Of a stretch of DNA of 64,000 bases, positions 989-2,180 are shown in pieces. Each line of letters starts with the position of its first letter. Positions within the stretch are counted from its first letter, which is position 1. The stretch is from NCBI GenBank assembly GCA_963699165.1, contig OY969413.1:852562-916561 (forward strand), written 5' to 3'. The notes under the pieces were generated by a model, which was not told the origin of the DNA, did not search any database, and was given only the letters and a program-made list of their open reading frames with translations. The position numbers were made by a program, and so were the translations under genes. Origin of the DNA: Candidatus Kaiserbacteria bacterium (GTDB taxonomy: Bacteria; Patescibacteriota; Minisyncoccia; Phycocordibacterales; Phycocordibacteraceae).

Positions 989-1013
989 ACATCTTGCCGG
1001 TTGCGGATATCCA

Positions 1014-1083
1014 ATTAGTGCGTTAGATTCTCACGCAATCATGCACAGTTGCGTGTGTGGTTGTAAGTGGAGGTCCTTTGAAC
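1014..1083 (+). repeat. conserved dual-hairpin leader motif, copy alpha (gtgcgttaNattctcacgcaaYcaYgcaMagWtgcgtgKg…gtggagg)
   Basis: About 65 of 70 nt identical to copy beta at 1616-1690. Contains two overlapping hairpins (tgcgt…acgca and cacgcaa…ttgcgtg) followed by GTGGAGG. Precedes small ORF 1057..1461. Confidence 0.5.
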
Positions 1084-1615
1084 AAAGAGCACTCCGTGCG
1101 CCGGTATTTGCGCCGGACCAGAATGAACGCGACATCGCTTTGCTGCAAAGCCCGTCGTTGGTGCGTTCGCAACAAGATCAAGGCGTCCGACCTTCCCGAC
1201 GGCAGGGCTGCCGTAAAGGCGGACGCTCGTTCTCTCAGTCAATGGTTGCGAGATCCCTCGGCTCGAATGCCGGATCTCAAGTACGTTGACCTGTACATGA
1301 AGGCGAATCCGGCAAAACCCCGCGAAGCTCCGCATCTCGTGGAAGTTCCGCCGGTTGTCGAAGCGCCGCCTTCGTCCAATCGCCGCGATGTGCGGCACTG
1401 TGGTCATCAGGATCGATTGCCAAGGGGTGCCTACACGCATCCCGTTGCAGTAGCGCGGTAACTTCGGTTTGACAATTTCGTTCAGCCGCCACGGCCAATT
1501 GGTCGTGGTGGCTGTTCCCTTTTTAGAGGACAAACGCTAGCCCGATTATAAATAGCTGTAACGCAGAGCTATCCTTTACTGTAAGAAAAGTTGTAAACAG
1601 GCCGTAGATTGCGCA

Positions 1616-1690
1616 TATTCGTTTCGTGCGTTACATTCTCACGCAACCACGCAAGATGTGCGTGGGTTATGTGGAGGATGGGAACTTATG
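1616..1690 (+). repeat. conserved dual-hairpin leader motif, copy beta
   Basis: Same motif as 1014-1083, placed upstream of ORF 1688..1978 (97 aa; GGAGG 8 nt before the ATG). Confidence 0.5.
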
Positions 1691-2060
1691 TCATCTCACC
1701 TAAAAACTTGCGGGGACAGGGCACGGCGGATAATCGCTGCCGCTCAGAGGTCTCTCGAGTGTTCGTCGCTAGAGTGTTTCGTTGCGTACGCGTTACGCGA
1801 CATTCTGGCCGACGTGAAGAACGAGGTCGAGACCATTCTAGGGAGGGAGCACCCGGTTCACCCGACGGTACTGAATTTCGCTCTGGAGGTGCACAGAGTG
1901 AAACGTTCGAGTCCTGACGACCTTAATGCGTTACGCATACATTACTCGTCGTGGCACTCCGTTCTCTCTAGCGCCTAGCCAATCACGGCAACGCTTATCG
2001 ACGCCGCGACCAACCGAATTCGGGTGGTCGTGGCGTTTCCATTTTCATACAAAAACGCTT

Positions 2061-2166
2061 GCCCCGTTACAAATATGCAGAGTCGTCTGACGATTTTCTG
2101 GAACTGCGCTATTATTACGTCACGACAAACCATCGATGGAAACTTTGAATTCATTTGTAACGGGGC
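2061..2166. repeat. CCCGTT-palindromic intergenic element, copy 0 (arms gCCCCGTTACAAAT / ATTTGTAACGGGGc)
   Basis: Perfect 14-bp terminal inverted repeat flanking a 78-bp interior; ends 15 nt before the ileS ATG. Same architecture as copies at 5022, 8963, 12966, 28355-28712 and 36671. Confidence 0.6.
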
Positions 2167-2180
2167 TAGGATAAAGGCGT

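Follow-up and report, generated by a model that had tools for sequence, protein, structure and literature searches.

Layout of the argS-ileS interval

The interval between argS and ileS was analysed in a 64,000-nucleotide stretch of contig OY969413.1 of a Candidatus Kaiserbacteria bacterium, referred to here as the window. The window opens inside argS (open reading frame [ORF] 5..988), and ileS starts at 2181. An earlier note on this DNA had called the interval gene-poor and had suggested that a 70-nt motif repeated in it could be a pair of cis-regulatory leaders, with attenuator-like hairpins, or a small-RNA locus. We found that the interval holds two units of promoter, ORF, and terminator, together with a 107-bp palindromic insertion. 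The repeated motif is a promoter followed by a 5′ untranslated region and a ribosome-binding tract, i.e., a set of ordinary expression signals and not an attenuator or small-RNA switch, and the apparent regulatory RNA is thus resolved into the signals of two small genes. As a whole, the interval is quite probably made of two tandem copies of one small unit, in which a promoter, a 5′ hairpin, a ribosome-binding tract, a small gene, and a terminator follow one another.

The leaders of the two units form a direct repeat (982-1076 and 1590-1680) with approximately 78% identity over approximately 95 nt, which is lower than the 90% over 70 nt given previously; without gaps, 982-1045 and 1590-1653 are 77% identical. 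The duplication is nevertheless real and not a product of chance, since the 21-mer GTGCGTTASATTCTCACGCAA occurs exactly twice in the 64 kb, where 0.01 occurrences are expected, and the leader repeat has only these two copies in the window. Each copy leads into GTGGAGG and a small ORF, as had been described, and BLASTP finds no similarity between the two encoded proteins (E = 4.1). A second repeated block lies 3′ of each ORF and consists of a strong hairpin (1483-1514 and 2001-2036) and a tail of approximately 40 nt (1514-1554 and 2035-2075, 71% identical). The whole repeated unit of approximately 600 bp therefore comprises leader, ORF, terminator, and tail, as follows.

982..988, + strand: end of argS with the stop codon TAA at 986-988, and left edge of the repeat of unit 1 (from ORF 5..988 and the start of the repeat at 982).
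1001..1029, + strand: predicted promoter of unit 1, −35 TTGCGG (1001-1006), 17-nt spacer, −10 TAGATT (1024-1029) (from the family layout and invariant positions).
1037..1062, + strand: predicted transcript start A1037 and 5′-terminal stem-loop of unit 1, CAUGCAC (1040-1046) paired with GUGUGUG (1053-1059) around the loop AGUUGC (from the minimum-energy fold and a covariance-model match).
1069..1080, + strand: GGAGG (1069-1073) and, 4 nt after it, the putative TTG start codon (1078-1080) of ORF1 (from the sequence and the position of the tract in the family).
1078..1461, + strand: ORF1, 127 amino acids, basic, possibly a very diverged or decaying paralogue, of uncertain coding status (from the family profile and hhalign).
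1483..1524, + strand: predicted intrinsic terminator of unit 1, 14-bp stem (1483-1514) and T5 (1520-1524) (from a terminator scan; −32.4 kcal/mol, z = −7.1).
1530..1582, + strand: tail of unit 1, a diverged copy of the left ileS promoter (AAACGCTAG) and of the left end of the palindromic element (from a 71% repeat and alignment with 2040-2100).
1576..1601, + strand: relic of the argS 3′ end (ACTGTAAGAAAAGTTGTAAACAGG) and putative tandem-duplication junction (from alignment with argS ends, both that of the window and those of the relatives L035, L010, and L044).
1609..1637, + strand: predicted promoter of unit 2, −35 TTGCGC (1609-1614), 17-nt spacer, −10 TACATT (1632-1637) (from the family layout and a covariance-model match at 1609-1672).
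1645..1665, + strand: predicted transcript start A1645 and 5′-terminal stem-loop of unit 2, CCACGCA (1647-1653) paired with UGCGUGG (1659-1665) around the loop AGAUG (from folds and comparison with the contig L001).
1673..1690, + strand: GGAGG (1673-1677) and ATG at 1688 of ORF2 (from the sequence, the 16S tail, and duplex energies).
1688..1978, + strand: ORF2, 96 amino acids, of a small, predicted alpha-helical protein family restricted to Kaiserbacteria/Paceibacterota (from the family profile, hhalign, and the orthologue P0001).
2001..2046, + strand: predicted terminator of unit 2, stem 2001-2036 and then TTTCCATTTT (−29.4 kcal/mol, z = −6.1), homologous to the junction of terminator and ileS promoter in relatives.

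Database searches with the leader itself were negative. No covariance model of Rfam 15, including T-box, matched 900-2300 at gathering thresholds or at E ≤ 10, and an exact-pattern scan for GTGCGTTASATTCTCACGCAA gave no match in 185,579 species-representative genomes. Four matches in metagenomes of the Joint Genome Institute were dismissed as chance, their flanks being without similarity. Leader segments of 76 to 78 nt fold with z values of −1.8 and −2.7 relative to shuffles, i.e., modestly.

Expression signals of the leaders in the window and in relatives

Relatives were gathered by a search with the argS fragment, which gave 74 loci with ArgS identities of 43 to 84%, mostly labelled Kaiserbacteria, Paceibacterota, or Parcubacteria (candidate phyla radiation [CPR]). 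The order argS-ileS is conserved, and close relatives differ in the gap between the genes, which measures from 5 bp up to 2.7 kb (24 of 69 gaps are below 100 bp, 38 are of 100 to 700 bp, and 7 exceed 700 bp). Approximately 40 related Kaiserbacteria/Paceibacterota genomes have the same architecture in this spacer, and most relatives carry a single unit. After the argS stop codon, an occupied gap reads TTGCRN, a 17-nt spacer, TA(G/C/T)ATT, CA 7 to 8 nt further on, a hairpin, a GGAGG-type tract, a small ORF starting with ATG, GTG, or TTG 4 to 10 nt past the tract, and a GC-rich terminator fused to the block GTTTCCATTTTTGCCC..AAACGCTA(C/G)GATA, which ends 7 to 9 nt before the ATG of ileS.

From 18 leaders, a covariance model (R1) of the promoter and the hairpin was built and searched against both strands of 878 kb, approximately 12 kb per genome. 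It gave 34 matches with E < 0.1, all on the + strand and all in argS-ileS gaps, and it found both copies of the window, with 51.5 bits (1001-1067) and 46.6 bits (1609-1672). The earlier note was to be given up if the leader occurred nowhere else and the ORFs were not conserved; the leader recurs in relatives, and ORF2 is conserved. One 161-bp gap (L028:1638-1799) keeps the promoter, the hairpin (R1 E = 0.003), and the terminator/ileS-promoter block and has no ORF, being either an ORF-less remnant or the source of a short non-coding transcript.

Two Logan contigs (runs SRR27973122 and ERR10755936) are identical to the window, and one contig of the European Nucleotide Archive (L001) is 94% identical across unit 2. 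The independent Logan assemblies L002 and L003, of the identical strain, break at approximately 967 and 747 of the window, close to unit 1 or a little before it; the repeats of leader and tail may make short reads hard to assemble there.

The pattern TTGNNN-16/18-TANNNT, i.e., two hexamers at 17 ± 1 nt, was found in 41 of 42 homologous leaders, and its spacer is nearly always exactly 17 nt long. In the leader alignment, T1, T2, and G3, G22 (two bases before the −10 box), T24, A25, and T29 are invariant and the spacer is variable. Hexamers that are kept while the spacer drifts indicate a sigma-70-type promoter. A nearly invariant CA follows 7 to 8 nt past the −10 box, which gives A1037 and A1645 as predicted starts. 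For CPR biology, this amounts to a predicted promoter consensus of TTGCRN, 17 nt, TAGATT, and a start at CA.

The same type of promoter lies 7 to 10 nt before the ATG of ileS and of several other genes of the window; TTGnnn-16/18-TAnnnT with a −10 box ending at this distance from the ATG was seen at many genes (e.g., 12429, 19159, 30314, 31817, and 44409). Among the relatives, 41% of the long ORFs have TAnnnT 6 to 10 nt before the ATG, and leaderless mRNAs seem to be the rule in this lineage.

Nearly every leader has a hairpin 0 to 11 nt past the −10 box. The complementarity CACGCAA…TTGCGTG reported previously is this family hairpin in a slightly different register, and the left arm of the unit 1 stem aligns with the CUGCAC arm of relatives. 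Over the 40 nt that follow the −10 box, the folding energy averages −12.6 kcal/mol, compared with −7.7 for shuffles (p = 3e-10) and −10.7 for the reverse complement (p = 0.001), and 50 of the 438 predicted hairpin pairs are G-U. The better folding of the + strand and the G-U pairs favour an RNA structure over a DNA palindrome. Distant relatives have wholly different stems, such as CUGCAC/GUGCAG, GACCG/CGGUC, GCUGCGC/GCGCAGC, UGCCGCAC/GUGCGGCA, and AGUGGCUC/GAGUCACU, and in L001 the unit 2 stem CCACGCA/UGCGUGG is unchanged while its flanks vary. RNAalifold predicted no pairs on a plain MAFFT alignment of the leaders, in which the right arms were misaligned. We instead supplied the structure by hand, built a covariance model, and refitted the alignment to it. 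After this fit, 80.5% of the cells are paired versus 14 to 63% with the partner arm slid, and covariation is 0.204 versus 0.165 (1 of 500 shuffles). The covariation evidence for this hairpin is supportive but modest.

The complementarity TGCGT…ACGCA is likewise present in the DNA of both copies. The promoter spacer ends with its five-base left arm (1019-1023; 1627-1631 in copy 2), and the −10 box forms the loop. As this arm lies upstream of the predicted start, it is not expected in the RNA. Across the 18 leaders, 66.7% of the cells are paired, a value reached by 136 of 500 column shuffles, and the covariation score is reached by 175 of 500. To judge from this alignment, the complementarity comes from two conserved sequence blocks. 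Moreover, an A-to-T change in L001 breaks the arm ACGCA/CACGCAA that the two hairpins would share. Neither leader hairpin is followed by a U-run, and a terminator scan of the + strand found none at 1030-1080 and 1640-1690, which argues against a leader terminator. Thus, the proposed attenuator is not borne out: one of its helices is not expected to be transcribed whole, no leader terminator was found, and the two helices are not both conserved or covarying.

The GGAGG tract had been taken as structural. In 35 of 42 leaders, a GGAGG-type tract precedes the start codon by 4 to 10 nt, whereas among 496 other long ORFs of the relatives the share is 12.5%, and in 41 leaders its mean unpaired probability is 0.53 versus 0.42 with shuffled upstream sequence (p = 0.002). 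This position and accessibility speak against a structural role and also against sequestration, given that only copy 1 (unpaired probability 0.07) and a few relatives have the tract paired. Pairing of ATTCTC with GGAGG, considered from the first folds, was rejected, since its ATT belongs to the −10 box and so would not be transcribed. The hairpin loops of relatives (L024, L035, L043, L046, and L073) are often pyrimidine-rich (AAUCCC, ACUCCC) and, by eye, partly complementary to GGAGG/GGGAG. As a candidate interaction with the tract, such loop pairing was discarded by eye as inconsistent across leaders and absent from both copies of the window.

Most genes of the window lack a Shine-Dalgarno (SD) sequence, as previously stated: in all of 47 long ORFs, GGAGG is absent from the 20 nt before the first ATG. 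The anti-SD is also degenerate as described, with a 16S 3′ tail GGAACAUAUCCAAA compared with GGAUCACCUCCUUU in the model, where UAUCC replaces CCUCC. Pairing of the tract with the organism's own 16S tail reaches −6 to −7 kcal/mol, which is weak but not nil, versus −11.4 for the canonical tail; in copy 2, GGAUG (1676-1680) fits the altered tail at a spacing of 7 nt. Literature searches on the anti-SD or on leaderless translation in CPR brought up nothing of direct relevance. A GGAGG tract conserved beside a 16S of the UAUCC type offers a small natural test case for SD-like tracts without a canonical anti-SD.

The 16S gene (51498-53850) is itself split after approximately 52722 by an insertion of approximately 1 kb, with a 3′ exon at approximately 53715-53844 that ends in GGAACAUAUCCAAA. 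The insertion carries a 170-amino-acid LAGLIDADG endonuclease ORF (53091-53603; Pfam E = 1.8e-19). The 23S gene (33096-36677), upstream of the 16S gene and apart from it, spans 3,582 nt versus 2,925 nt in the model and holds at least one insertion with a LAGLIDADG ORF (35274-35858; Pfam E = 8e-20).

The small genes and the history of the locus

A family hidden Markov model (HMM) was built from 29 relatives, with no sequence of the window, and scored on the 923 six-frame ORFs of the window. ORF2 was the top match (E = 1.5e-4, HMM positions 1-81), aligned with the family in hhalign with P = 8.3e-5 over 71 columns, and carries the family motifs in order from the N to the C terminus. It has an intact orthologue, P0001, with 95% identity, and gene calling reported it on both L002 and L003. 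Between the window and L001, divergence is 3.8% in ORF2, 10% in the leader, and 7% in the tail; ORF2 is intact in both, with 5 synonymous and 5 non-synonymous codon changes. Judged by these comparisons, ORF2 is a real gene under purifying selection and a member of the family.

ORF1 ranked third of the 923 and in the expected register, although not significantly (E = 0.21), and its hhalign match was weak (P = 0.041, probability 1.3%). At best, ORF1 may be a very diverged paralogue of the family. The antisense ORF 1039..1533 gave no family signal.

The proteins of the family have approximately 65 to 125 amino acids and consist of a basic N terminus, the motif V..A..KCGCS..FF..A, a variable linker, the motif (Y)(K/R)IP..V...A, and a basic C-terminal tail that ends in small or hydrophobic residues. 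We read the motif A..A..KCGCS..FF..A as helix-turn-helix-like. Searches of Pfam, PADLOC, and PHROGs with the proteins of the small ORFs gave nothing meaningful, and a profile search of the PDB returned only designed helical repeats and non-significant matches to uS13, and thus no solved relative. A profile search of 5.8 billion proteins gave only three matches, all annotated as hypothetical protein. The single-sequence AlphaFold2 model has four helices and a predicted local distance difference test (pLDDT) score of 55, too weak for a fold search. The small genes are fast-evolving, and their family is bound to a single chromosomal site in Kaiserbacteria, where presence, absence, and copy number vary between close relatives.

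Each unit ends in a GC-rich stem-loop and T-run past its ORF, at a position conserved in relatives, as expected of an intrinsic terminator. With its own predicted promoter and terminator for each ORF and a single unit in most relatives, the locus does not look like a small-RNA locus; the same layout and the lack of matches in Pfam, PADLOC, and PHROGs also count against the suggested addiction or phage-defence pair, in that the ORFs do not appear as co-transcribed partners that match known modules.

The end of unit 1 and the start of unit 2 bear traces of their origin. The relic of the argS 3′ end before unit 2 aligns with the argS end of L035 (GAGAAGATGTAAACAGG), and the tail of unit 1 includes, at 1540-1553, a 14-mer of the end of the palindromic element with 3 mismatches. 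An argS relic before unit 2 and a unit 1 tail with the left end of the insertion form the pattern of a tandem duplication. The two units thus probably arose by a duplication that reached from inside the argS 3′ end to inside the palindromic insertion.

Relics of the argS end after inserted DNA were also seen in L015, L060, and L001. In L015 (7720-7800, gap 740-830), a 28-nt relic follows an unrelated ORF of 239 amino acids with an N terminus, MKKAKKIRLAVFDIDGTIF, that by eye is like that of HAD-type hydrolases. In L060, a 63-nt repeat with 95% identity (gap 1-63 versus 711-772) surrounds an insert of approximately 700 bp, and a further argS-end-like fragment is present.

Downstream of unit 2, the palindromic insertion divides the promoter of ileS:

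2060..2166, no strand assigned: palindromic insertion resembling a miniature inverted-repeat transposable element (MITE), 107 bp, terminal inverted repeats GCCCCGTTACAAAT at 2061-2074 and 2153-2166 (from the inverted repeat; fold z = −4.4).
2145..2183, + strand: predicted ileS promoter of the leaderless type, −35 TTGAAT (2145-2150, inside the insertion), −10 TAGGAT (2167-2172), ATG at 2181, 8 nt past the −10 box (from the promoter pattern and relatives).

Relatives have an uninterrupted AAACGCTAGGATA, 6 to 8 nt, and then ATGGC. The window reads AAACGCT, 107 bp, and TAGGATAAAGGCGTATGGC, from an ancestral AAACGCT|TAGGATA, and the insertion supplies TTGAAT 16 nt upstream of the retained −10 box. 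The terminal inverted repeats are perfect over 14 nt; a target-site duplication is not clear. A second MITE-like element at 8960-9077 has the same ends (TCCCGTTAGAAAT...ATTTCTAACGGGA), an unrelated interior, and a fold z of −4.3, and it likewise reaches the start of the gene that follows (9076). A dif/Xer-like site in TTGCGCATAT...GTGCGTTACAT was considered and rejected, the arms not being inverted copies of each other.

Proposed function, alternative readings, and known systems

Each unit would be driven by a sigma-70-type promoter, TTGCGN-17-TA(G/C)ATT, with a transcript that is predicted to start at the conserved CA 7 to 8 nt past the −10 box (A1037 and A1645). A stem-loop would begin 1 to 3 nt from this predicted 5′ end and leave free an accessible GGAGG tract 4 to 10 nt before the start codon of the small ORF, and a strong intrinsic terminator would close the unit. 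The hairpin would act in the RNA as a 5′-terminal stem-loop that most likely guards the mRNA from 5′-end-dependent decay, or else as a recognition site for a protein. In the upstream copy, ORF1 may since have diverged beyond recognition, or it may be decaying. What is retained of the earlier note is a cis-acting leader before a small ORF, whereas its attenuator, structural GGAGG, small-RNA locus, and addiction or defence pair are not.

Several observations weigh against this account. Transcription start, terminators, and translation are all predictions. The fitted alignment leans towards structure by construction, and the inner stem keeps its sequence among the closest relatives, where covariation is not significant (reached by 61 of 500 shuffles). 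In copy 1, the minimum-energy fold reaches GUGG of the tract (unpaired probability 0.07), so that the picture of a free tract fails there, and the 16S lacks the CCUCC by which a GGAGG tract would normally be read. ORF1 has no homologue in the 5.8 billion proteins, was not called on the identical contig L003, and is absent from a collection of 15 billion proteins in every frame tried. Both ORFs have atypical codon scores (−0.24 for ORF1 and −0.23 for ORF2). Lastly, the DNA upstream of unit 2 in L001 differs from unit 1, which makes recombinational turnover of the units possible instead of, or besides, duplication in place.

Some of these points would suit units that make structured non-coding RNAs of approximately 400 to 500 nt, with both ORFs, or at least ORF1, untranslated. 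The two codon scores fall in the off-frame range, where in-frame windows average +0.33; ORF1 has neither homologue nor gene call; the ORF-less gap of L028 keeps promoter, hairpin, and terminator; and, across relatives, conservation is higher in the leader than in the ORF. Between strains, however, ORF2 is intact and has diverged less than the DNA around it, the proteins of the family have their motifs in the same order from the N terminus to the C-terminal tail, and a GGAGG tract and start codon stand at fixed spacing in 35 of 42 leaders, all of which make a non-coding locus improbable. Less credible still is a riboswitch-like or attenuator switch, in which two mutually exclusive RNA hairpins sharing ACGCAA would control read-through or translation. 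Both complementarities do occur in both copies, copy 2 has CACGCA twice beside a single UGCGUG arm, and the long fold of copy 1 reaches the GGAGG tract; but the TGCGT arm sits in the promoter spacer, its hairpin has no covariation support, U-run, leader peptide, and Rfam match at E ≤ 10 are all lacking, L001 breaks the shared arm and keeps the inner stem, and family-wide the tract is more accessible than in controls.

The inverted repeats could alternatively be DNA operators, at which a repressor, maybe the ORF product itself in autoregulation, binds the palindrome at +2 to +25 or TGCG...CGCA around the −10 box. The helix-turn-helix-like family motif agrees with this, as do the position of the palindrome, where repressor operators often lie, the conserved GYGCGY before and CGCAG after the −10 box, complementary in 67% of cells, and the stem and loop sequence kept within the close clade. 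We consider it a minor contender, given that folding of the + strand is more stable than that of its reverse complement (p = 0.001), that 50 of 438 pairs are G-U and would break DNA symmetry, and that the same GCAC/GUGC hairpin precedes ORFs with strongly differing, degenerate, or absent putative recognition helices (L024, L026, and L028); nor did Pfam give a DNA-binding domain or the structure model a confident fold (pLDDT 55). Somewhat less improbable, while still unlikely, is that the units of the window are independent acquisitions of mobile or exchangeable cassettes that enter at the argS 3′ end by site-specific or homology-facilitated illegitimate recombination. Close relatives with gaps from 5 bp to 2.7 kb would fit, and so would argS-end relics after inserted DNA in L015, L060, L001, and the window, the 94% identity of L001 in unit 2 next to different upstream DNA, and leaders and tails that are conserved while the ORFs are not. 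Against such cassettes, no recombinase or att-like repeat was identified, R1 found no unit outside argS-ileS in the 878 kb (approximately 12 kb per genome), collections of phage and plasmid DNA gave no match, and the left end of the insertion found past unit 2 recurs in the tail of unit 1, as a local tandem duplication predicts.

Beyond the two tandem units, a wider proposal for the lineage is that the argS-ileS spacer of Kaiserbacteria is a dedicated hot spot at which rapidly diversifying small-protein genes are gained, duplicated, replaced, and lost as self-contained units that keep their promoter, 5′ hairpin, and terminator, with entry at the argS end leaving relics, and that the units are rare leadered mRNAs of the SD type in an otherwise leaderless, CCUCC-less lineage. 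We regard this as speculative and rather unlikely; if true, it would imply a dedicated translation route for the units or a specific RNA-binding partner of the hairpin.

The palindromic insertion is similar to MITE and repetitive extragenic palindromic elements in its length of approximately 107 bp, in terminal inverted repeats of 14 to 17 nt, and in being non-coding and intergenic with a second same-ended copy at 8960-9077. It differs from them in that two copies were seen, with unrelated interiors, no clear target-site duplication, and no identified transposase partner.

The leaders share with SD-sequestering leaders (ROSE and fourU thermometers and type I toxin mRNAs) the long fold of copy 1, which pairs part of GGAGG. 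In contrast to these, the tract is more exposed than in controls across 41 leaders, and neither an antisense RNA signal nor a toxin-like hydrophobic peptide is present. With synthetase attenuators and T-box leaders, they have in common the site between two synthetase genes and two overlapping complementarities in the DNA. Unlike these, the motif precedes a small lineage-specific ORF, has no U-run and no Rfam match, and has one arm outside the predicted transcript, and the ileS promoter is of the leaderless type.

Hairpins in the 5′ UTR of ompA in Escherichia coli and in the aprE and ermC leaders of Bacillus subtilis stabilize their mRNAs. The hairpin described here resembles these 5′-terminal stem-loops in that it is a simple structure predicted 1 to 3 nt from the 5′ end, conserved on the transcribed strand with modest covariation, kept as the sequence changes, and too small for a ligand, with an accessible ribosome-binding tract downstream. 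It differs in that its 5′ end is predicted and that the sequence of stem and loop is kept in the close clade, which suggests a specific partner of the hairpin and not a purely steric block.

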